A stretch of 43,737 bases of DNA, taken from a virus. Its lineage: Duplodnaviria; Caudoviricetes. Positions within the stretch are counted from its first letter, which is position 1. The number at the start of each line of letters is the position of its first letter. The stretch lies in the IMG/VR virus record IMGVR_UViG_3300034084_000052, positions 1-43,737 of that record; one strand, written 5' to 3'. The translations under genes were made by a program, and so were the position numbers. Under the pieces are notes generated by a model. That model saw only the letters and a program-made list of their open reading frames with translations. It was not told the DNA's origin and did not search any database. Positions 32,714 through 43,214 of the stretch are shown here, piece by piece.

Positions 32714-33165
32714 GCACTCTGACGATCACGATGGACAAAGGGGCCTTCCTGACGGAAGTCCAGAAATACGTTAATCTCTCGCCCGTCTTCGCGGAGTGGA
32801 AGGACGTCCAGTCCCTGGACTGGCCCAGTGCCCTCGTCCCGCCCAAGCTCTGGAAGACCCTTCCCGAGATCATCCAGTTCATCGGCGCCGTCTGCGCCGC
32901 AGTCGAGCTGGCCAAGATCGAGGTCATCAAGAAGGAGGACCCCGACGGCACGAAGGGCGCCAAGTTCGACCGGGAGTTGGCCCTCCGCACCGCGGTCACG
33001 ATCTTCGCCGCGGGTGTCCGGTTTGGGGGCGTCTGGGGATGGCTCCCGGGGCGCATCTGGTTCCCGATCATGAACCTCCTGATCTCGATCTATGTTTCCC
33101 AGCGTCCCGCCGACTGGGCCGCGCTTGCGGTCAAGATCCTCCGCATCGCGCTGGTGACGGTGTGA
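32710..33165 (+). CDS. Hypothetical lysis-cassette protein (amphipathic/hydrophobic)
   Basis: TTGA overlap start (alternative ATG 32731). The stop overlaps the endolysin start. Confidence 0.65.
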   Translation: MSTLTITMDKGAFLTEVQKYVNLSPVFAEWKDVQSLDWPSALVPPKLWKTLPEIIQFIGAVCAAVELAKIEVIKKEDPDGTKGAKFDRELALRTAVTIFAAGVRFGGVWGWLPGRIWFPIMNLLISIYVSQRPADWAALAVKILRIALVTV

Positions 33166-33692
33166 CGTCGCGACTGGACAGGGCTCTGGACTTCACCCTC
33201 GAGCACGAGGGCGGATGGTCGGACAGGAAGAACGACAAGGGGGGCAAGACGAACTGGGGGATCACCCTGGCGGTCCTGAAGGGCCTCGGCCGGGATGTGG
33301 ACCTGGATGGGGATGTGGATGCGGACGACCTCCGGGCCTTGCCGAAGGAGGAGGCTCGAGCCATCTACGAGAACCTGTACTGGTTCGGGGACCCTTTCCT
33401 GGACGACGCCGTCGCGATCAAGCACTTCGACATCGGCGTGCACGCCGGCCCCGGCACCGCGAACAAGATCCTTCAGCGGGCCATCAACAACTTCTGGGGG
33501 AGGCCCCTCCTCGCCGAGGACGGTCATCTGGGTCCGAAGACCCTGGCCGCGGCCAATGCGCTCCCCCCGAAGGACATGCTCCAGGCCCTTTGTGCGGAGC
33601 AACTCGGCCACTACCTCAACATCATCCGGCTGGACCCCACCCAGATCGAGTTCCAGAACGGCTGGATCAAGCGGGCCAAGCGGAAGCCCTGA
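33162..33692 (+). CDS. Endolysin, glycoside hydrolase family 108 with C-terminal peptidoglycan-binding region
   Basis: TLEHEGGWSD...DKGGKTNWGIT, EF-hand-like DVDLDGDVDADD, IY...YW, DGHLGPKTL and F..GW..R. Confidence 0.92.
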   Translation: MTSRLDRALDFTLEHEGGWSDRKNDKGGKTNWGITLAVLKGLGRDVDLDGDVDADDLRALPKEEARAIYENLYWFGDPFLDDAVAIKHFDIGVHAGPGTANKILQRAINNFWGRPLLAEDGHLGPKTLAAANALPPKDMLQALCAEQLGHYLNIIRLDPTQIEFQNGWIKRAKRKP

Positions 33693-33929: not shown

Positions 33930-34191
33930 AAAACTCGGCTTCACCCTTTTCGGGGACAACGGCGTCTTTCGGGGCAAGCGGAACGAGGGCTCCTACACCC
34001 GGGTGATTCCGTTTCTGCTCATCGTGGTCGCGGTCCTGATCTGGGTCGCCGGGGTCTACGTCCCAGACATCGCGGCCTACGCCACCTCCATGATCGACAA
34101 GATCATCGAGCTCGCGAAGTGGACCTTCGGCCTCGGTAAGGGGTCCGAGGAAATCAGTGGCATTGGAAAGCCGGCCAAGGCCGAGGAATGA
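33847..34191 (+). CDS. Holin candidate (two TM segments)
   Basis: GAGGT RBS. TM segments LWLAWIGSVLLGFLVGYLVSV and VIPFLLIVVAVLIWVAGVYV. Downstream of the endolysin. Confidence 0.65.
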   Translation: MTGKLWLAWIGSVLLGFLVGYLVSVKYEKLGFTLFGDNGVFRGKRNEGSYTRVIPFLLIVVAVLIWVAGVYVPDIAAYATSMIDKIIELAKWTFGLGKGSEEISGIGKPAKAEE

Positions 34192-34550
34192 AACCCCTCC
34201 GGGTCGTTTCTCTGGGGGTGGCCCTCGGACTGTTCCTTTCGACCTGCTGGGGGAATGTCCAGGACGCTCGAGGGGAGCGGGACCTCTGGGAGGAGCGGGC
34301 CCAACTGTCCGAGTTTCTCGAGGAACGGTCCAGACAAAAGGTTGCGACCCTCACCCGGAGGTGTGGGTCGCATCAACGGACAATAGCTGTCCAACGGCAC
34401 AACATCGAGGTCTTGCTCGGACTGGCCGCCGCCCTCCGGGATCTCCGAAGGGGGGAAGTTCCGAAGCCGAAGGAGCCGGAGGAGGTTCCTCGGTTCGAGT
34501 ATCCTCGCTTTTCGATCGTCAGCGGTTCAGCGCCAACTGAGCACCCATGA
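34188..34550 (+). CDS. Spanin-like protein (signal/TM + coiled coil, near-lipobox LSTC)
   Basis: ATGA overlap. MKPLRVVSLGVALGLFLSTC followed by a charged helical region. Last gene of the lysis cassette. Confidence 0.55.
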   Translation: MKPLRVVSLGVALGLFLSTCWGNVQDARGERDLWEERAQLSEFLEERSRQKVATLTRRCGSHQRTIAVQRHNIEVLLGLAAALRDLRRGEVPKPKEPEEVPRFEYPRFSIVSGSAPTEHP

Positions 34551-35148
34551 CGACCCAGTCGCGGTTACCGTGGGCGTCCTCGGCGACACCGGGGGCGGGA
34601 TCGAATCGGACCTGATAGCTCGGCGCACACCCGGACAGCGTAGTCTCCCGGATCACGGTCCCGGTGTTCCCGACCATGAACCAGTTCTGATTCAGGGCCG
34701 TGTAGTCGGAGGGAACGATCACGACCCGATCCCCCGGGGAGAAGCGTGGGCTCGGCGCTACGAGGTGGCGTCGGTCAACGATGTCGTCCTCGGAAGGAGC
34801 GGGGTCCGAGGGCTTCTCGAACTGCGCCTGGAACTCTTCCTGGTCGATCGCCAGGAACAGGAGCAGGTAGTTGATGACGTCCATCACCCGGCCCGCGATG
34901 GGCTCCTCGGTCTTGGGCCAGTTCCCGGCGACCCGCTCCCGGATGTACCGCTCGATCGAATCGAGGTGCTTCCCCATGTAGACGGAGTGGACGACGTAGG
35001 GAGAGACCCCCAGCTTCTTGGCGTTATTCCGGAAGTTGGTCGTGACCTCCTGCGCGTTCGAGTACTCGTCCCCCTTTCCGGTGAGGATGCGCTCCGCCTC
35101 GGTCAGGGTCGGGTGCACGATCTGGCTCAGAAATTCGGCTCTGTTCAT
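34519..35148 (-). CDS. Nucleotide-modification-associated (DUF1599/Nmad-like, all-alpha) protein with SH3-like C-terminus
   Basis: L..KG.EY......NF, Y..KH.D.I and E.I..R..D.INY.LL motifs. C-terminal FSPGDRVVIV...G..GTV...Y.V.FD. Confidence 0.65.
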   Translation of the reverse strand: MNRAEFLSQIVHPTLTEAERILTGKGDEYSNAQEVTTNFRNNAKKLGVSPYVVHSVYMGKHLDSIERYIRERVAGNWPKTEEPIAGRVMDVINYLLLFLAIDQEEFQAQFEKPSDPAPSEDDIVDRRHLVAPSPRFSPGDRVVIVPSDYTALNQNWFMVGNTGTVIRETTLSGCAPSYQVRFDPAPGVAEDAHGNRDWVVMGAQLALNR

Positions 35149-35501
35149 TTGAAGACCTCCTCGTTGGGGTTGAATCCGTTCTGGACTGCTCGTTCAATTG
35201 CCTTGATGCGGCGGTAATCATCTTCCGCCCGGAACACGGGGTGGTCCATCCCCCAGGGTGCCCCGAGGACCTCATCCGCGGCCTGCTGGGCCCACGCCGG
35301 CCAGGAGGAGCGGAGGGGCCACTGGTACTCGGCCCGTGCCCGGGAGAGCCCGTACCAACGGGCCTCGGCTCTCCGATCGAGCCACCACAGCAGTCCCCCG
35401 AAGATCAGGATGCTTCCGGCGAAAACGAGCCAGGAGAGCAACTCCGACTGAGGGGAGGCCGGTCCCTCACTTCCTGGAAACTTCCCACCAGCTATTTCCA
35501 T
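35145..35501 (-). CDS. Small membrane protein
   Basis: TM segment LLSWLVFAGSILIFGGLLWWL. The stop overlaps the next start, and the start overlaps the polymerase end. Confidence 0.6.
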   Translation of the reverse strand: MEIAGGKFPGSEGPASPQSELLSWLVFAGSILIFGGLLWWLDRRAEARWYGLSRARAEYQWPLRSSWPAWAQQAADEVLGAPWGMDHPVFRAEDDYRRIKAIERAVQNGFNPNEEVFK

Positions 35502-37320
35502 GCTTCCACTCCGAACAGATGGGGACCCTCAGTCCCAGGGTGTTTTCCTCGTACTGTTTCTTCAGCGCAGGGATGGCGTCGGGGGATCCGGACAGTTCGT
35601 CCGAGTCGTGGATCGTGAGCATCATCCGACTCCCCGTTTCCTTCGAGGTTCGTCGAAGCTCGACCAGCTTGACCTTCATGAGCTCCGCGGCCCCACCCTG
35701 GAAGACCAGGGGGCCGGCCTTATGCGTCTTCTGCCCCCCCGGGAAACGACAGCGGCGTCCAAGGATCGTCCGGACGTACCCTCGGTCCTTGGCCACCTTG
35801 GAGATCGCCTTCAGCAAAGGCTTCAGCTCCGGGAGGGCCCCGTGATACCGCTCGAAGAGAAGCTGGGCCTCGGACCCGCCTTTCTTGAACTCGATGAACT
35901 CCCCCTCCCTCGAAGTAAAGGATTCGAGCGTAAAAGGCATCCCCATCTCCTCGGCGAGCCGCCCCTCAGACATCCCGAAGGCCAGCCCGAGGTTGATGGT
36001 CTTAGCGCAGGCTCTGGACGTGGGGGTGGGGTTCCGGGGCAGCCCGGTGATCTCGGCGACCTTGGTGTGGAAGTCCAGGAGGGGATTCTCGGCGTAGGCC
36101 TTAACCAGCAGGGGGTCATTCATGAAGTGAACCACGAAACGGAAATCGATCTGGCTGAAGTCCCCGGAGAGCCACTTCGCGCCCTCGTCCGGAAGGAAGC
36201 AGGCCCGGACGATCTCGCACGCCTTCTGATTCCGGACGCTGATCTGCTGGAGGTTGGGCTCATTCGAGGAGAGCCGGCCGGAGCTCGTTCCGTACATGGC
36301 CCCGGTGTCGCTGTCGCTCTTGGTCTGGTTGTAGTTCGTGTGGACCCGTCCGTTGTGGGCGTTCCCGAGGACGTGGCCCAGAAGGAAGGTGTCCCGGATC
36401 TTCGTGAGATTCCGGCACTCGAGGATCAGGGCCGCGGCGGGGTGGGAGGCTCGACGGAGGCAGTTCGCATCGATCGAGGCGGCCTTCCCAGACTCGGTGG
36501 GGTTCGTGAGGGTCCCATCGTTCAGGCGCCACCACCCGGAGGCCTCCTTCACCGGGTTGAAGAGGAACTGCATACTCTTCGGGCTCAGGATCCCCACAGG
36601 GAAGCCGGCCGCCGCGTTCAGTCGGCGTTGCAGAGAATCGATCTCAGCGGTCAACTTCGGGACGGCCCTCTCCGCCAAGCCCAGGTCCACCCGAACGCCC
36701 CCGTGCTCCATCTCGGTCAGGACCGGGAGAAGGTCCATCTCCAGCTTCCGAACCCGGAGCAGGTCCTGACGCTCGAGCTCCGCCAACTGGATCGGGAGGA
36801 TCTGCGCCACCAGCTTCGTATCCTGCATAGCATAAGATTCGACGAGGGGCCGCAACTCTGGCATTTCCAGGGCCTTGCCCATGTTCGGCATCTGGGCCTT
36901 GCGGGTCGGTTTACCTCCGAAGATCTCGGAGAACTTCTGGTACAGGGTGTTGTCCTTTCCCTCCCCGACGTACCGCTGGCCGATGTCCTCGAGCGAGTAG
37001 CTGAGGAGGTGCTCATTCAGGAGCGCGGCATAGACCATAGAGTCGTGGATCTCGAGCTGGAAGAGCTCGTCGGTGGTCAGGACGCCCAGCGCGATCAGGT
37101 GGTGGAAATCGAACTTGATGTTGTGGTTCCCGATCCGTCCGTGGTTCAGGATCATGTCCCGCAGCTTGCGCCGGGAGGACTCATTCCGGAGGTCCAGGAC
37201 CCCCGAGGCGTGCGGCAACGTCCAGGCCGCCAGTACATTCTGAGACCCCGTCCACCAATTGAGGGATGGGGTCTCCAAGTCCACGATCAGGATTTCATTC
37301 AAGCGCAACTCCGGGGTCAC
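35467..37320 (-). CDS. DNA polymerase family A with 3'-5' exonuclease (non-canonical active-site residues)
   Basis: Exo motifs DLET, NHNIKFD and YAMQD. SGRLSSNEPNLQQI, motif A DFSQIDFR, motif B RACAKTINLGLAFG, motif C IHDS. GTG 37320 preferred as start because it follows the upstream stop at 37322. Confidence 0.95.
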   Translation of the reverse strand: MTPELRLNEILIVDLETPSLNWWTGSQNVLAAWTLPHASGVLDLRNESSRRKLRDMILNHGRIGNHNIKFDFHHLIALGVLTTDELFQLEIHDSMVYAALLNEHLLSYSLEDIGQRYVGEGKDNTLYQKFSEIFGGKPTRKAQMPNMGKALEMPELRPLVESYAMQDTKLVAQILPIQLAELERQDLLRVRKLEMDLLPVLTEMEHGGVRVDLGLAERAVPKLTAEIDSLQRRLNAAAGFPVGILSPKSMQFLFNPVKEASGWWRLNDGTLTNPTESGKAASIDANCLRRASHPAAALILECRNLTKIRDTFLLGHVLGNAHNGRVHTNYNQTKSDSDTGAMYGTSSGRLSSNEPNLQQISVRNQKACEIVRACFLPDEGAKWLSGDFSQIDFRFVVHFMNDPLLVKAYAENPLLDFHTKVAEITGLPRNPTPTSRACAKTINLGLAFGMSEGRLAEEMGMPFTLESFTSREGEFIEFKKGGSEAQLLFERYHGALPELKPLLKAISKVAKDRGYVRTILGRRCRFPGGQKTHKAGPLVFQGGAAELMKVKLVELRRTSKETGSRMMLTIHDSDELSGSPDAIPALKKQYEENTLGLRVPICSEWKHGNSWWEVSRK

Positions 37321-37321
37321 C

Positions 37322-37678
37322 TTAGAAGGTAGGCCTCCGGGCGATTCGCGCAAGGGATTGCCACGTCCCGGGGAGGTCAACCGCCCTCCGGAACGTTTCG
37401 GACAGGGCCAGGGCGTGCTGCGTGAAGTCCTCGAGGGTCAGGGCCTGATGCAGCGAGGCCTCGGCAAGACCCCAGAGGAGCAGCTTCTCCGGGGTCAGCC
37501 TCGGGTTCTCGAGCATCTTGGTGAGGGCTTCGCGTCCCTTCGGTCGGGTCATGCCGAGAAATTCGGCCAGAGGTCCGAGGCCCTTGGCGAGGTCGATGTT
37601 CTCCGGTCGGGCGTAGAGCTGGAGGAGACACCTGTAGGCCTCGTATCCGGTCATCGGACCCTCGGGCTCGGGGTTCAT
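37322..37678 (-). CDS. Hypothetical protein
   Basis: GGAGG RBS and ATGA overlap with the exonuclease stop. 118 aa, helical. Confidence 0.65.
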   Translation of the reverse strand: MNPEPEGPMTGYEAYRCLLQLYARPENIDLAKGLGPLAEFLGMTRPKGREALTKMLENPRLTPEKLLLWGLAEASLHQALTLEDFTQHALALSETFRRAVDLPGTWQSLARIARRPTF

Positions 37679-38427
37679 CGCTGGGCCTCCTCCAGGGCCC
37701 ATAGTACCGAGGAGCGAAGGTCCTCGTCCAGGTCCTCCATCTTGTTCAGCATCCACTTGAGGTAGCTGGGATCCTCCCGAGCCATGTCGAGGATCAGCTT
37801 GCCCCGATGCTTCCCGAAACGGAACTTGGTGATCCGGACGGGGCGCAAGATCCAGGGGATGATCTTGTCCACGGTCAGGTTGTCGGGATCCTTGGAGAGC
37901 GCCATCACGGCCTTCAGTTCGTGGGCCAGATTCGCGGCCGTCACGAGGGCATCCGGGAGGGCCGAGTGGGTCATCTGCTTCCCGCCCCCGTGCACCTTCA
38001 GCTTCCAGTAGTACCTGAGGTACTGGTTCTTGTGCTGGTCGAGTTCAGGCCACAGGTGCTGGGCCAGCCGGAGGGTGTCAATCACGGGGGTCTTCGGGTC
38101 CGGCTTCAGGAAGGCCATGTCGAAGGGCGCGTTGTGCGCGACCAGGACGTCGAACGGGCGGGTCGCGTACATGGCCGTTAGGACCTTCGCGATCGGCGGA
38201 GCCTCAGCCACGTCCTCGTCCACGAGGTGGTGCACCGCGGAGGCATCCGGAGGGATGGGGGTCCCCTCGGGGTTCACGAGGTCCTCGAAGGTGTCCAGGA
38301 CGTTCCCTTCCCAGTCGACCCAGACTGCGCCGATCTGGATGATCTTGTCGACCTCCGCATCCCGACCCGTCGTCTCGACGTCGACCACGAGGTACTTCGC
38401 GTCCCGGATATGAATAGGTGTCTGCAT
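37675..38427 (-). CDS. DEDDh 3'-5' exonuclease, exodeoxyribonuclease X-like
   Basis: VVDVETTG, IPP.ASAVH, LVAHNAPFD, IDTL.LA..LWP and HSALPDA. C-terminal F.FGKHRG...YLKW.L. Confidence 0.9.
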   Translation of the reverse strand: MQTPIHIRDAKYLVVDVETTGRDAEVDKIIQIGAVWVDWEGNVLDTFEDLVNPEGTPIPPDASAVHHLVDEDVAEAPPIAKVLTAMYATRPFDVLVAHNAPFDMAFLKPDPKTPVIDTLRLAQHLWPELDQHKNQYLRYYWKLKVHGGGKQMTHSALPDALVTAANLAHELKAVMALSKDPDNLTVDKIIPWILRPVRITKFRFGKHRGKLILDMAREDPSYLKWMLNKMEDLDEDLRSSVLWALEEAQR

Positions 38428-38442
38428 CAATGCTCCAAAGAC

Positions 38443-38483: not shown

Positions 38484-39269
38484 TCAGATCTCGGCTTCGA
38501 GGTTCTGGTTGGCCCGCTCCGGAGCAGACGCCGTGGCGTCCGTCTCCTCGAAGCCGGCCTTGGCGATGCCGGCCAGGGTGTCCTGGTACAGCTTGAAGGC
38601 CGCCTTGGCAACCTTCTCAGGGGTGAAGCCCGCCGGGGAGATCGCGAAGTTGAAGTAGGGGCCCTTCTCGTTCTTCTCGGCGACGACGGACAGCTTCCAG
38701 ACCCCGCCGAAGCGAGGGTAGCCCTTCTCGATCAGGTACGAATCGATGAGGGAGTTCATCTTGCGGCTGACCTTCAGCTTGGTGCTGACCATCACGAGGG
38801 CGACCTCGCCCAGGGATTCCTTCGTGACCGGATCCAGGGCGATGCCGTAGTGCACCGACTGGGCCACGATCTCGCAGTCGTCCTTGTCCTTCTGGGCGTC
38901 CAGGAGGGCCGTGGCCTTCGCCTCGGTCATCTCGATGCCCCGGAATCCGCCGCCCTTGATGCGCTTGCGGAAGACGCCGTACTCCACCCGGAAGAAGGCA
39001 TCCACGAAGAGAATCGTTTCGTGGGTGGTCCCCAGGACGGTGTGGAAGATGTCGCCGGCGCGAGCCGACTCGACGAACTTGGCGTCACCCTTCGTGACCT
39101 CCGGGGACAGCCCCTGGAGCAGGGTGAGCCGAGCGAGGACCTTGTCCTCGGTGCGGACGTTCTCGGACCCGATGGCGCCGTAGGCGGCAAGGTACGAGGG
39201 AACCTCCATTGTGGTTGCGACGCCACTCGCCTCGACGGTGGCAACTGCGGTGTTCGAATGCTTGGCCAT
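38484..39269 (-). CDS. Putative ssDNA-binding protein
   Basis: GGAGG RBS. GSENV..ED....RL.LLQ.LSPEV, ST.LK.SRK.N and N.KG.YF. Acidic C-terminal tail, located in the replication module. Confidence 0.65.
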   Translation of the reverse strand: MAKHSNTAVATVEASGVATTMEVPSYLAAYGAIGSENVRTEDKVLARLTLLQGLSPEVTKGDAKFVESARAGDIFHTVLGTTHETILFVDAFFRVEYGVFRKRIKGGGFRGIEMTEAKATALLDAQKDKDDCEIVAQSVHYGIALDPVTKESLGEVALVMVSTKLKVSRKMNSLIDSYLIEKGYPRFGGVWKLSVVAEKNEKGPYFNFAISPAGFTPEKVAKAAFKLYQDTLAGIAKAGFEETDATASAPERANQNLEAEI

Positions 39270-39369
39270 GCTTGGCCTCCGTTGTTGGGCATTGGGGGCG
39301 AAAAGAAGGTGACCCGAGCCAAGGGGCACCTCGCCGTGTATTCCGAAGGTAAGCCCTTCGGGGACTTCG

Positions 39370-39894
39370 TCAAGACTTGAGAACGGCCTTCTGGAACTGC
39401 CGCACCTTGATGAAGGGGGGCGGCTCGGTCATGTTGCCCAGGCAGTCGTTCTTCACCCAGGCCTTCAGGGTCTGGGGAGGGATATGCTCCTGGACCATCG
39501 AGCCGTGCCCGTGGTCCTTGAACCACAGCATCGCCATCGGACGGTCCCCGGCCGCCATCGTGACCTGGAGCTCACCCCGGAGGTGCACCAGCTTGCCTGA
39601 GGTCAGCTTGAAGTTCTTCATGCCCTCGGCCTCGAGCTTCGCCGGGATGGCGTACTCCTCGAGGTACTTGCGCTCCTCTTTGAGTTCCTTGACCCGATCC
39701 TCGAGCTCACCGATCTTGGCGGCGAGATCCTCGAGGGAACCCCCCAGTCCGCCCAGACCTTCGGAGGAGTACTTATCCTTGAAGATCAGGAAGCTGTCGG
39801 GCTGGTCCGTCGGGGTGGCGGGGGCGCCCCCGTCCATCTGATTCAGGGCCGCCTGCTGGCCGGCGTAGTCGTCGATGCTCAGATCCTGGCTCAT
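39370..39894 (-). CDS. Coiled-coil replication-module protein (Gam-like family candidate)
   Basis: Coiled coil followed by IP...E..G...F.L..G and W....GHG......I.PQTLKAWVK. Confidence 0.65.
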   Translation of the reverse strand: MSQDLSIDDYAGQQAALNQMDGGAPATPTDQPDSFLIFKDKYSSEGLGGLGGSLEDLAAKIGELEDRVKELKEERKYLEEYAIPAKLEAEGMKNFKLTSGKLVHLRGELQVTMAAGDRPMAMLWFKDHGHGSMVQEHIPPQTLKAWVKNDCLGNMTEPPPFIKVRQFQKAVLKS

Positions 39895-40241
39895 TCTTCT
39901 CTCTCCGGAACGGTCCACTTGATCTGATCAAGGGTCACCGTCAAAGGGTAGTAGCGGGACCGAATCCGGTTCCACTTCAGTACCTGGATTTTGGTGTGCC
40001 CCAAGCGGTACAGGGCGGTGAAGGCGAGCCCTATGTTGATGGGGTCGCCGATCGGTAATAGGAAGTCTAGGCTCGGATTGAAGTCCGTCAAGGCCGCCCT
40101 GACGCCGGCGTAGCTGCTCGGGCTTCCGGTGTAGTCCATGTAGGAGATCCCAGGGAGCAGCTTCCCGTGGTCCGAGGCCTTCGAGAGGTCGTGATTCGTT
40201 GACTGGGTTGGGAAGACTCTAGGTTCCACGGCGCTCTCCAT
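39891..40241 (-). CDS. Hypothetical protein (alpha/beta)
   Basis: RVF..Q, D.S.A...G.L, L.DF....DFLL.IGDP and VLKW.R....Y.P. Preceded by promoter-like elements. Confidence 0.7.
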   Translation of the reverse strand: MESAVEPRVFPTQSTNHDLSKASDHGKLLPGISYMDYTGSPSSYAGVRAALTDFNPSLDFLLPIGDPINIGLAFTALYRLGHTKIQVLKWNRIRSRYYPLTVTLDQIKWTVPEREE

Positions 40242-40538: not shown

Positions 40539-40717
40539 TCCTCGCCCTTCTCCCCGGAGTCCATCAACACCGAGACGAACTCGAAGGCCCAGCCCCGGAT
40601 GCAGAAAAAGGTTTCCTCGGGGTCCTCGGCATTGTCGATCGAGACCGAGAGGGCCCCGAAGGTGACGAACCAGAGGAGGATCAGGGCCACCTGGACAAAG
40701 TAAAAGGTCAGTTTCAT
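40535..40717 (-). CDS. Small membrane protein
   Basis: GGAGG RBS, ATGA overlaps on both sides, hydrophobic N-terminus. Confidence 0.6.
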   Translation of the reverse strand: MKLTFYFVQVALILLWFVTFGALSVSIDNAEDPEETFFCIRGWAFEFVSVLMDSGEKGEE

Positions 40718-42489
40718 CTCGTCGCCTCCTCGATTTCGTCATTCAGAGTTGCAACATAATCCCTGCGAGCCTTCAGCGCCCGGAAAACTTTTGAGTCGAC
40801 CCATTCCTTGCCCTTCGCGGGCATCTCCATCAGGAGGTCGATGTAGACGACGGTCTTGGTCTGGCCCACCCGGTGGGCCCGATCCTCGGACTGGATGCGG
40901 GTCTCGAGGGACCAGGAGTTGCTGAAGTAGACCATCGTCTCCGCGGCCGTGAGGGTGATCCCGATCCCGCCCGACTCCTGCTGACCTACGAAGAAGCGGC
41001 ACCTCGGATCTTCCTGGAAGCGTTTCCGGGCGAGGGTGCGGGTCTCGTTGTCGATCCCGCCGTGGAACTCCACGACGGAGCCGGGGTAGACCTTCTCGAG
41101 GGCGGCACGCACCGCCTCGATCTCGGGCCGAAAGCGGCACCAGATAATGATCTTTCCGGGGCAGTCCTCGGCGATCTGGAGAACCTCCTCGACCTTCGGG
41201 TTCGGGCCGGAGATCGGCTCCGCCTGGGCCTTCTCGAGGCGTTGCTCGAGCTGTGCAACAGCGGCCTCCCAGGCAACAGGGTCCTCGAAGCAGAACTCGG
41301 GCATGCCCTCGTCCTGGTGCCCCAGCACGGATGCAAGTTCGCGGTCCGCGGTCGCGAAGCCGCCCGTGATCTGCTGGAGGCGCAGGTCCCGGACGACCGC
41401 GATGGTGTAGGTTACGACCTGCCCAGGGGCCACGATCGCGGCGCCGCTCGTGCGGAGGTCGTTGTAGAGTCGCAGCATCTCGTCCGAAGGGGCGACCCGA
41501 CGGGTCTGATACACCTTGGGGGGAAGGTCCAGGCACTTATCCTTCGTGGCCATATGGACGAAGTCCGAGATCAGGTCCACGAACTGGTCCTCGTTCTTCG
41601 AGGACACGATCTGTTTCGCCTCGAAGCCCCCCATCACACAGAACTTGTTCCGGAAGGTGAAGAAGTTCATCCCGGCCAAGATGTCCGGGGAGAGGATCGC
41701 GAACTGACTCCAGGCATCCTGGAGCCCTTTCGTGATCGCGGTCCCGGTCAAGATTCGGCGGCGCTTCGCGAGCGGGCTCAGGCGCAACAGAGCCTTCGTG
41801 CGGGTCGCGTTGTGGGTCTTGAAGCGGCTGCTCTCGTCCACACCGAGGGAGGTGGCCTGCTTCGTCAGGAAGGCCTCCAGGACGTCCTGGCCGCTCTTGT
41901 GGCTGATAGACTCGCAGGCGATGATCAGGACCTTCAGGACGCCCTCCTGGGGGGCCTGCTTGATCCACAGGAGGGTCTTGGTCCGGTTCTCCGGGGAGTA
42001 GACCCAGCACTCCACCGGGAGCGGGCAATGCTTCTCGAACTCGTCGACCCAGTTGCTCTTGATCGAGTTCGGGCAGACGATCGCCACGGCCTGGATGACC
42101 TTGTCCGAGAAGGCCTGGGCGGAGTCGTCGATCAGGGCCTTGGATTTTCCCAACCCCGGGTCGTGGAAGAGGGCGTAGTTCCGCATCGAGAGCATCCGGG
42201 CCAAGGCCGCGGACTGGTGCTCCAAAGGTGTCGTCTTCGGGAAGAGTTCCATCCCTCGGAGAGGAAAGCGAGGCTCGCCGGCGCGAAGCCGACGGACCTC
42301 CGTGATCGCGTCAGGGGATAGCGCGGCGTTGATCCCGAACAGGTACTCGGCAACCATCTGGGTGCGGGGCGCGGTCCAGGCCTGGACCTTGTCGTTGTAG
42401 GCGCGGTGCGGTATCCCTCGGAGCAGCTCGATGTCCGAGGGCGTTCCGAGGCAGATGAAGTAGTTGCCGCGTATCTCTGCGGTAACCAT
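40714..42489 (-). CDS. SNF2-family (superfamily 2) helicase
   Basis: PLEHQ, DPGLGKSK, VCPNS, VDESSRFK, ILTGT, KIIIWCRF, GGIGITLTAA and QSEDRAHRVGQ. Confidence 0.95.
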   Translation of the reverse strand: MVTAEIRGNYFICLGTPSDIELLRGIPHRAYNDKVQAWTAPRTQMVAEYLFGINAALSPDAITEVRRLRAGEPRFPLRGMELFPKTTPLEHQSAALARMLSMRNYALFHDPGLGKSKALIDDSAQAFSDKVIQAVAIVCPNSIKSNWVDEFEKHCPLPVECWVYSPENRTKTLLWIKQAPQEGVLKVLIIACESISHKSGQDVLEAFLTKQATSLGVDESSRFKTHNATRTKALLRLSPLAKRRRILTGTAITKGLQDAWSQFAILSPDILAGMNFFTFRNKFCVMGGFEAKQIVSSKNEDQFVDLISDFVHMATKDKCLDLPPKVYQTRRVAPSDEMLRLYNDLRTSGAAIVAPGQVVTYTIAVVRDLRLQQITGGFATADRELASVLGHQDEGMPEFCFEDPVAWEAAVAQLEQRLEKAQAEPISGPNPKVEEVLQIAEDCPGKIIIWCRFRPEIEAVRAALEKVYPGSVVEFHGGIDNETRTLARKRFQEDPRCRFFVGQQESGGIGITLTAAETMVYFSNSWSLETRIQSEDRAHRVGQTKTVVYIDLLMEMPAKGKEWVDSKVFRALKARRDYVATLNDEIEEATR

Positions 42490-42668: not shown

Positions 42669-43214
42669 TCACTCCTCCCGAGTGTCGGACTCATACGATG
42701 ACCGAATCTTTTCTGAACTTCCAGTCTGTTCAATCGAGTCCAGGTATGATTCATCCCCGAGTTCGATGTAGGTGTTGAGGCTGTAGGTTCTCCAGGCGAA
42801 CGCCTCGAGCCCTTTGGCCAAAAGTTCCCTCGGAATTGACGCCGGGAAGGTGTAGTGATAGGGGTTCCAGCAGGCCGCATTCCCGCAGTCCGCGCGGAGC
42901 CCTCTCCACCAGACCTGCGGGAGGGACTTCGGATCGGTCTCGAGCACCATTCCCAGGGCGAGGCACCCGTGCGTGAGGAGGTTCGGCCCATTGTCCGGGG
43001 TTCCGTCGTCCTTCAGGAACGGTCCAGGGTTGAAGACCGTCGCGCATCGGGGGGTGATGCCGTGCGTGTCGTACCTTCCGCGCATGTTCCAGCACCCCGT
43101 CAGTGGGTCGATCGAGGTTCTCCGGGTGGCACTGATTCGGATTCTCTTGAACCGTTTTGCCCGCTCTACCTCTACCTCCCTGGGGGTCAACCTCGTGCCG
43201 TACTCGATCGCCAT
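42669..43214 (-). CDS. HNH/His-Cys-box endonuclease-like protein, possibly degenerate
   Basis: GGAG RBS. TGCW.. and C.N..C.NP.H motifs. Confidence 0.6.
   Translation of the reverse strand: MAIEYGTRLTPREVEVERAKRFKRIRISATRRTSIDPLTGCWNMRGRYDTHGITPRCATVFNPGPFLKDDGTPDNGPNLLTHGCLALGMVLETDPKSLPQVWWRGLRADCGNAACWNPYHYTFPASIPRELLAKGLEAFAWRTYSLNTYIELGDESYLDSIEQTGSSEKIRSSYESDTREE

Follow-up and report, generated by a model that had tools for sequence, protein, structure and literature searches.

A phiVC8-type phage DNA polymerase with proline in place of a conserved DpoZ glycine, from a lineage that may have given up 2-aminoadenine

Introduction

The DNA polymerase DpoZ of phage phiVC8 prefers dZTP to dATP by one to two orders of magnitude, yet at the dATP concentrations found in cells it does insert adenine, and DatZ supplies the rest of adenine exclusion (PMC8599892). 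That study names Leu455, Phe459 and Gly548 as characteristic of the DpoZ clade, describes three insertions together with Arg161 and Met165 of helix E2, excludes Ser583 from the signature, and finds no single determinant of the preference for 2-aminoadenine (Z). Polymerases of this type, among them those of PMBT28 and SH-Ab 15497 and the structure 7PBK, correspond to PolA cluster 18 of PMC10201439, where they are given as belonging to ZTGC-DNA phages, and to the 'DpoZ-2' group of PMC12884076, according to which polymerases align with PurZ groups. New DpoZs have also been validated from Z-enriched contigs (metaGPA preprint 10.1101/2025.10.22.683976). The sister group is formed by the phiJL001-like polymerases (cluster 11, including those of YuA/M6-type Pseudomonas phages), which carry Leu762 in E. 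coli numbering. The loss of purZ was raised as one option for phiJL001 (PMC8599892), and PMC11946847 mentions, for the phiJL001/YuA-type group, fold similarity to DpoZ only. Our literature search, which covered main texts, turned up no account of purZ being lost within the DpoZ clade itself. Relatives that keep the DpoZ fold but apparently gave up Z would provide the missing comparison, and they single out Gly548.

Results

The window, by which we mean the whole 43,737-base stretch of DNA analysed, is a linear, 78% complete record of a long-tailed phage in which plus-strand terminase, portal, capsid, tail and lysis genes converge with a minus-strand replication module. The latter includes, at 35467..37320 on the minus strand, a family A DNA polymerase with 3'-5' exonuclease, 617 amino acids long from a GTG codon (637 from an alternative upstream TTG), which is likely the replicase of this phage. 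The four motifs on which the original prediction was built, DFSQIDFR, KTINLGLAFG, HKAGPLVFQG and HDS, are all present in the translation exactly as described. By alignment, Asp392 (codon 36145..36147, minus strand) is the equivalent of E. coli E710, Leu444 and Phe448 of motif B (35977..35991, minus strand) are those of F762 and Y766, Pro537 (35710..35712, minus strand, as computed from the ORF start) is that of N845 and Ser573 that of E883. The respective phiVC8 counterparts are Glu401, Leu455, Phe459, Gly548 and Ser583, the numbering of the last four agreeing with PMC8599892. Catalytic residues D387 and H571-D572 and exonuclease residues D14, E16, D71 and D167 are intact. The gene shows no letter difference from contigs of four public sediment runs, three of which may be the source of the same DNA, making an assembly error an unlikely origin for the unusual residues.

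The proposed kinship with phiVC8 DpoZ was borne out by several approaches. The best PDB match of the polymerase is 7PBK (328 bits versus 154 for Taq), its structure model (pLDDT 89.5) matches the same entry in Foldseek at E 8e-42 and TM 0.83 (versus E 2e-27 for Klenow), and its best matches in cultured phages are those of PMBT28-like and SH-Ab 15497-like phages (about 39% identity) and phiVC8 (34%). In trees, it groups with phiVC8, PMBT28 and SH-Ab 15497, apart from the phiJL001-like PolA proteins, with a support of 100/100. Shared with the phiVC8-like enzymes at this 34-39% identity are the fold, all three insertions (palm, helix O and fingers tip), the helix E2 arginine and methionine (R140 and M144 in the window), the leucine and phenylalanine of motif B, an intact proofreading domain and an upstream helicase-gp33-gp34 module. 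The window differs from them in having proline for Gly548 and aspartate for Glu710, and in carrying no purZ-mazZ-datZ behind the polymerase. The motif B pair and the loss of Asn845, given in the original prediction as a DpoZ signature, do match the published one, and among the clade traits given in PMC8599892 only Gly548 of motif 6 is missing. The suggested relationship to YuA/M6-like polymerases found no support, as sampled members of the phiJL001/YuA type (about 30% identity) keep Glu710, Tyr766, Asn845 and Glu883, have no insertion in helix O and form an outgroup to the clade.

A survey of 120 homologous proteins separated the common substitutions from the rare one. Position 710 is aspartate in 81 of these, position 766 is phenylalanine in 115 and position 883 is serine in 16, while position 845 is occupied by glycine (97), alanine (19), proline (3) or serine (1). 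Removal of identical last 200 residues from polymerases scoring at least 300 bits left 62 close loci: 52 purZ-positive, three purZ-less with at least 5 kb of downstream sequence and seven too short, in one of which (L030) purZ lies across the circular join. Position 845 is glycine in all 52 purZ-positive close loci, alanine in the three purZ-less ones and proline in the window. Asp710 (28 of 52) and Ser883 (5 of 52) are common and sporadic, respectively, among purZ-positive loci, which rules out both as variant markers. HDS, previously taken for part of the DpoZ signature, is further discounted by the exclusion of S583 in the literature and by the HDE of PMBT28 and SH-Ab 15497; E710D, on which our literature search found no paper among those listed, likewise fails to mark a distinct variant. 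Only the rare Pro845 remains distinctive. Phe766 is found in all 52 purZ-positive close loci versus one of 116 distant purZ-less loci.

The 52-locus count overstates independence because several loci are near-copies, and a Fisher p of 3e-6 for the association of residue 845 with purZ was rejected because its rows are not independent. The correlation amounts to two tree-supported events, perhaps three, rather than 56 independent cases. Left out of it are 31 counts of 'Pro845' in distant purZ-less loci that stem from pairwise alignments below 300 bits, the sampled outgroup rows having asparagine. On a 136-row tree, all 19 rows of the subclade of the window have alanine or proline at 845. We also note a distant group of purZ-linked polymerases (33 loci, including L050, L051, L053 and L374) with Gln762 in 20, Thr766 in 20 and Asn845 mostly kept, and long intein-like insertions within motif A and pre-motif A of P0051 and P0071.

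The direction of change was read from a 34-row tree. The window falls in a clade of Ala/Pro845 polymerases (support 90/97) that is nested among the purZ-positive L009, L005 and L010 in the arrangement (L009,(L005,L010),Ala/Pro clade) at 100/100, and it is this nesting inside a purZ-positive clade that makes the direction one of loss. A second Ala845 branch, made up of L174 and L084, is placed close to phiVC8 and PMBT28. Two changes of the purZ-positive state are needed on this tree, and monophyly of the purZ-positive loci, a group named after earlier trees had been seen, is rejected with a p-AU of 3e-55. Within the branch of the window, P0026 combines Glu710 and Tyr766 with Pro845; P0022, with Ala845, adjoins the purZ-positive L010; and no further member of the branch was found in IMG/VR among the matches listed.

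Among the Z-less relatives is G006 (L174; L459/L460), a 37,168-base genome, complete with terminal repeats, that belongs to another branch than the window and whose polymerase has Ala845 and Tyr766. Its gene order is SH-Ab-like with the Z cluster absent: purZ, mazZ and datZ were all missing in searches whose positive controls matched, and the 15 ORFs scanned contain no modification gene save that of a C5 cytosine methyltransferase. G006 is a cleaner candidate for reversion than the window. A single Holophagaceae MAG contains both L258 and L467, contigs of matching GC between which one PcrA-like helicase gene is divided. Their join is inferred, with no overlap and with the gap inside that gene; the gap excepted, the pair covers everything between primase and lysis genes, helicases and polymerase included, and contains no purZ, mazZ or datZ, and no modification gene was seen in the ORFs scanned. 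The polymerase of L048 (9797-11713), a record 27% complete, is of DpoZ type with Phe766 and Pro845, and no Z gene was found in its 21.7 kb; it may represent a third case of Z loss. In L018, a gene of DUF550 type lies 1.2 kb upstream of the polymerase. The binning of L258 and L467 (G007) in a Holophagaceae MAG is a weak hint that the clade may infect Acidobacteriota, and the L048 polymerase adjoins genes that on inspection by eye look like those of ThyA and of a ribonucleotide reductase with two subunits.

The Z genes come after the polymerase in PMBT28, Bm1, phiVC8 and SH-Ab 15497. For 51 of the 52 purZ-positive close loci, purZ lies at -1 to +2344 bases relative to the end of the polymerase, the exception being L032, where it lies 10.4 kb upstream. 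The corresponding slot of the window, 34519..35466 on the minus strand, is fully sequenced, measures about 950 bases and is closed by convergent lysis genes, including an endolysin (32796-33692, plus strand) and a last plus-strand ORF at 34188-34550. It is full, holding a small ORF without family assignment and with one hydrophobic segment (35145..35501, minus strand; 118 amino acids as listed, the true start probably being later), which overlaps both neighbours, and a 209-residue ORF at 34519..35148 on the minus strand. In agreement with the original prediction, neither purZ nor datZ was found within the 43.7 kb, nor was mazZ, using Pfam searches and custom profiles whose positive controls matched; the Pfam search with PF04447 was run without a positive control.

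Upstream of the polymerase, all on the minus strand, are a DEDDh exonuclease with an ExoX-like C-terminus (37675..38430), Pam3 gp34-, gp33- and gp32-like genes (38484..40241) that are conserved upstream of DpoZ-clade polymerases, and an SNF2-type helicase (40714..42489). No primase was seen in the record, which stops 1.25 kb upstream of the helicase. Between helicase and record end, an ORF at 42669-43208 (minus strand) has a Cys/His pattern that looks by eye like that of an HNH-type nuclease, and the ORF has no Pfam or PHROG match. At the opposite end, positions 1-101 consist of an array of 21-base repeats, probably collapsed given that its depth is four to five times the local one, with a 1,687-base contig adjoining on the left; the array is possibly an origin or packaging region.

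The nearest purZ-positive branches, the uncultured L005 (G011, complete, 48 kb), L010/L011 and L009, have in common with the window Asp710, Leu762, Phe766, ExoX and a DUF1599-like gene, but unlike it they retain Gly845, and their polymerases are followed by purZ, the DUF1599-like gene, mazZ and datZ. The divergent PurZ proteins of L005 (12838-13947) and L011 (1563-2645) have the motif GSCGKG and are 36-40% identical to those of the phiVC8/PMBT28 type. In the window, the DUF1599-like gene is the 209-residue ORF, which overlaps its neighbours and whose first 108 residues resemble DUF1599/Nmad1 proteins, MazG-like all-alpha putative nucleotide pyrophosphatases. This resemblance comes from two Atlas clusters, one with 13% DUF1599, matched at a feature score of 0.94, and one with 63% DUF1599, matched by its predicted structure at a TM of 0.66; none of 16 aligned members has a Pfam match (PF07659 included), and profiles found no PDB relative. 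Its homologues, 19 rows with some duplicates, all come from purZ-positive loci, in L005 and L011 from directly after purZ, and one weak match is in the purZ-less L419. The gene is likely a leftover of the Z cluster.

Coupling of such a gene to the polymerase could also be read as a sign that Z was exchanged for another modified base, with the genes responsible in the unseen part of the genome, Pro537, Asp392 and Ser573 adapting the pocket and the DUF1599-like protein removing the canonical dNTP. We regard this as improbable: no base-modification gene was found when 56 ORFs of the window were scanned with PHROGs and 29 with Pfam, nor, save the C5 methyltransferase, in the scanned ORFs of G006 or L467/L258, and Asp710 and Ser883 occur in plain purZ-positive phages as well.

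The polymerase itself is a mosaic, its exonuclease domain being 60% identical to P0007 versus 39-43% to P0004-6, and its palm and fingers 48% versus 60-61%, which suggests a domain swap in its history, as judged from these identities. The reversal might be taken to indicate that a phage that never had Z acquired the polymerase sideways from a Z phage and re-tuned the enzyme, no genome having reverted, and PMC12884076 does argue that Z machinery often moves horizontally. All the upstream genes (helicase, gp32-34, ExoX) and, downstream, the DUF1599-like gene stand, however, in the order of L005. This is consistent with a module passed on by descent that lost three genes, and it leaves sideways acquisition very improbable. 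For the enzyme, acquisition and abandonment of Z make identical predictions.

PurZ proteins offered a further view of the Ala/Pro845 polymerases. As 120 of 788 PurZ matches were listed, absence from the list is moderate evidence only. A contig of equal size bearing a PurZ was present among the matches listed for six of eight Gly-type control polymerases versus two of 13 Ala/Pro-type ones. The first of these two pairs joins PurZ P0201 to the basal Ala845 polymerase P0055, both from the same source and on contigs of 38,679 bases (chance about 0.0008), and the two appear linked. P0201 is changed at 12 of 13 pocket sites, defined as the contacts of PurZ with dGMP, ATP and aspartate listed in PMC8342488, while none of the others among 123 aligned sequences is changed at more than one; it departs from 21 of 86 conserved columns (median 1) and has an end branch of 1.01 (median 0.27). 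No close relative was found among its 29 matches. This PurZ may be decaying or repurposed, the case for degeneracy resting on the 12 sites together; its full-length open frame of 366 codons, despite the lost pocket residues, could mean a new role and would then speak for the exchange of Z for another base. The second pair, the intact PurZ P0242 and the Ala845 polymerase P0024, both on 9,886-base contigs (chance about 0.04 over the set), comes from different sources, and among the PurZ proteins P0242 is on a distant branch.

The proteins of the window recur on a 61,700-base contig, so that about 18 kb are unseen, which counts against abandonment of Z. Two Logan contigs extend 6.5 kb beyond the right end of the window, on the helicase side, where L032 has its Z cluster; the exact pattern from this end was found in no IMG/VR record. 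A phage with a true Z genome, whose purZ-mazZ-datZ moved into the unseen part, for example between primase and helicase, and whose proline came without loss of Z preference, would account for the retained Leu762, Phe766, three insertions and helix E2 residues, for the purZ-positive surroundings of the DUF1599-like homologues in all 19 rows and for the equal-sized contigs of P0024 and P0242. It would also follow the precedent of L032 and L085, where the Z cluster is upstream of the helicase with purZ 4.4 kb before it, a region of which the window covers just 1.25 kb. We consider this alternative unlikely, though well ahead of the other two, on several grounds: L032 has Gly845, the primase-to-helicase slot of L258/L467 is also without Z genes, no PurZ among the matches listed is on a contig of 61,700, 20,244 or 20,218 bases (those of the phage of the window), and the PurZ of the basal Ala845 member is degenerate.

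Avoidance of restriction sites, tried as a sign of unprotected DNA, did not separate the window from purZ-positive phages. The observed/expected ratio of A-containing palindromes in the window (0.75) is inside the range of 33 purZ-positive loci (0.61-1.05), and on a panel of 13 sites listed in a figure legend in preprint 10.1101/2023.10.17.562781, on the restriction of dZ DNA, the window scores 0.83 versus a purZ-positive median of 0.85 (34 loci). L018 (0.48) and L258 (0.41) fall below the purZ-positive range for A-containing palindromes; the purZ-positive L005 and L021 avoid these palindromes too.

Discussion

From the clade placement, the preserved catalytic residues, a downstream slot free of Z genes and the division at position 845 between glycine, where purZ is present, and alanine or proline, where purZ was not found, we conclude that the polymerase is probably the DpoZ-derived replicase of a phage lineage that abandoned Z and would now copy ordinary adenine DNA. 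The modified DNA initially suggested by its active-site residues is probably the reverse of what they indicate, the lone rare change, proline at 845, going with absence of the Z cluster. Since it has proline at the place of Gly548 and no visible Z cluster, the enzyme ought not to be classified among functional DpoZs.

A plausible route to this state can be proposed. A phage losing datZ and purZ could still replicate, because DpoZ inserts adenine at cellular dATP levels. Selection would then relax the preference for Z, the first recurring change being at motif 6, from Gly548 to alanine or proline, and Tyr766 would return later in some branches, as in P0026 of this clade and the L174 group. The window enzyme would be an intermediate, with Phe766, Leu762 and the three insertions kept as inherited features and the DUF1599-like gene behind it as a remnant of the cluster. 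Asn845 of Klenow helps recognise matched base pairs, and its replacement by alanine lowers fidelity (reviewed in PMC10520511); glycine at this position may shape the minor-groove side, where Z has its extra amino group. Besides the unseen 18 kb, retention of Phe766, the pairing of P0024 with P0242, the DUF550-type gene of L018 and the Ala845 of P0022 all speak against abandonment. In addition, PMC8599892 reports Gly548 in one non-Z phage and its absence from Wayne-type DpoZ, and doubts that any single residue explains specificity. As Gly548 is thus neither sufficient nor universal, our proposal on its role is limited to this clade.

A wider conclusion, which we put forward tentatively as falling somewhat short of probable, is that Z genomes may be reversible. 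At least two branches of the phiVC8-DpoZ clade would have lost purZ-mazZ-datZ and gone back to adenine, in both cases with replacement of Gly548, which is invariant elsewhere, and a basal member would still have a decaying PurZ. Gly548 would be a main switch for Z over A, and the window enzyme a revertant midway, with Pro548 in place and Phe766 not restored. A DpoZ-like polymerase alone is in any case insufficient to call a genome 'Z'. If the reversion is true, the switch from A to Z can be undone in evolution, and the changed glycine would point to a residue that tunes the preference for Z.
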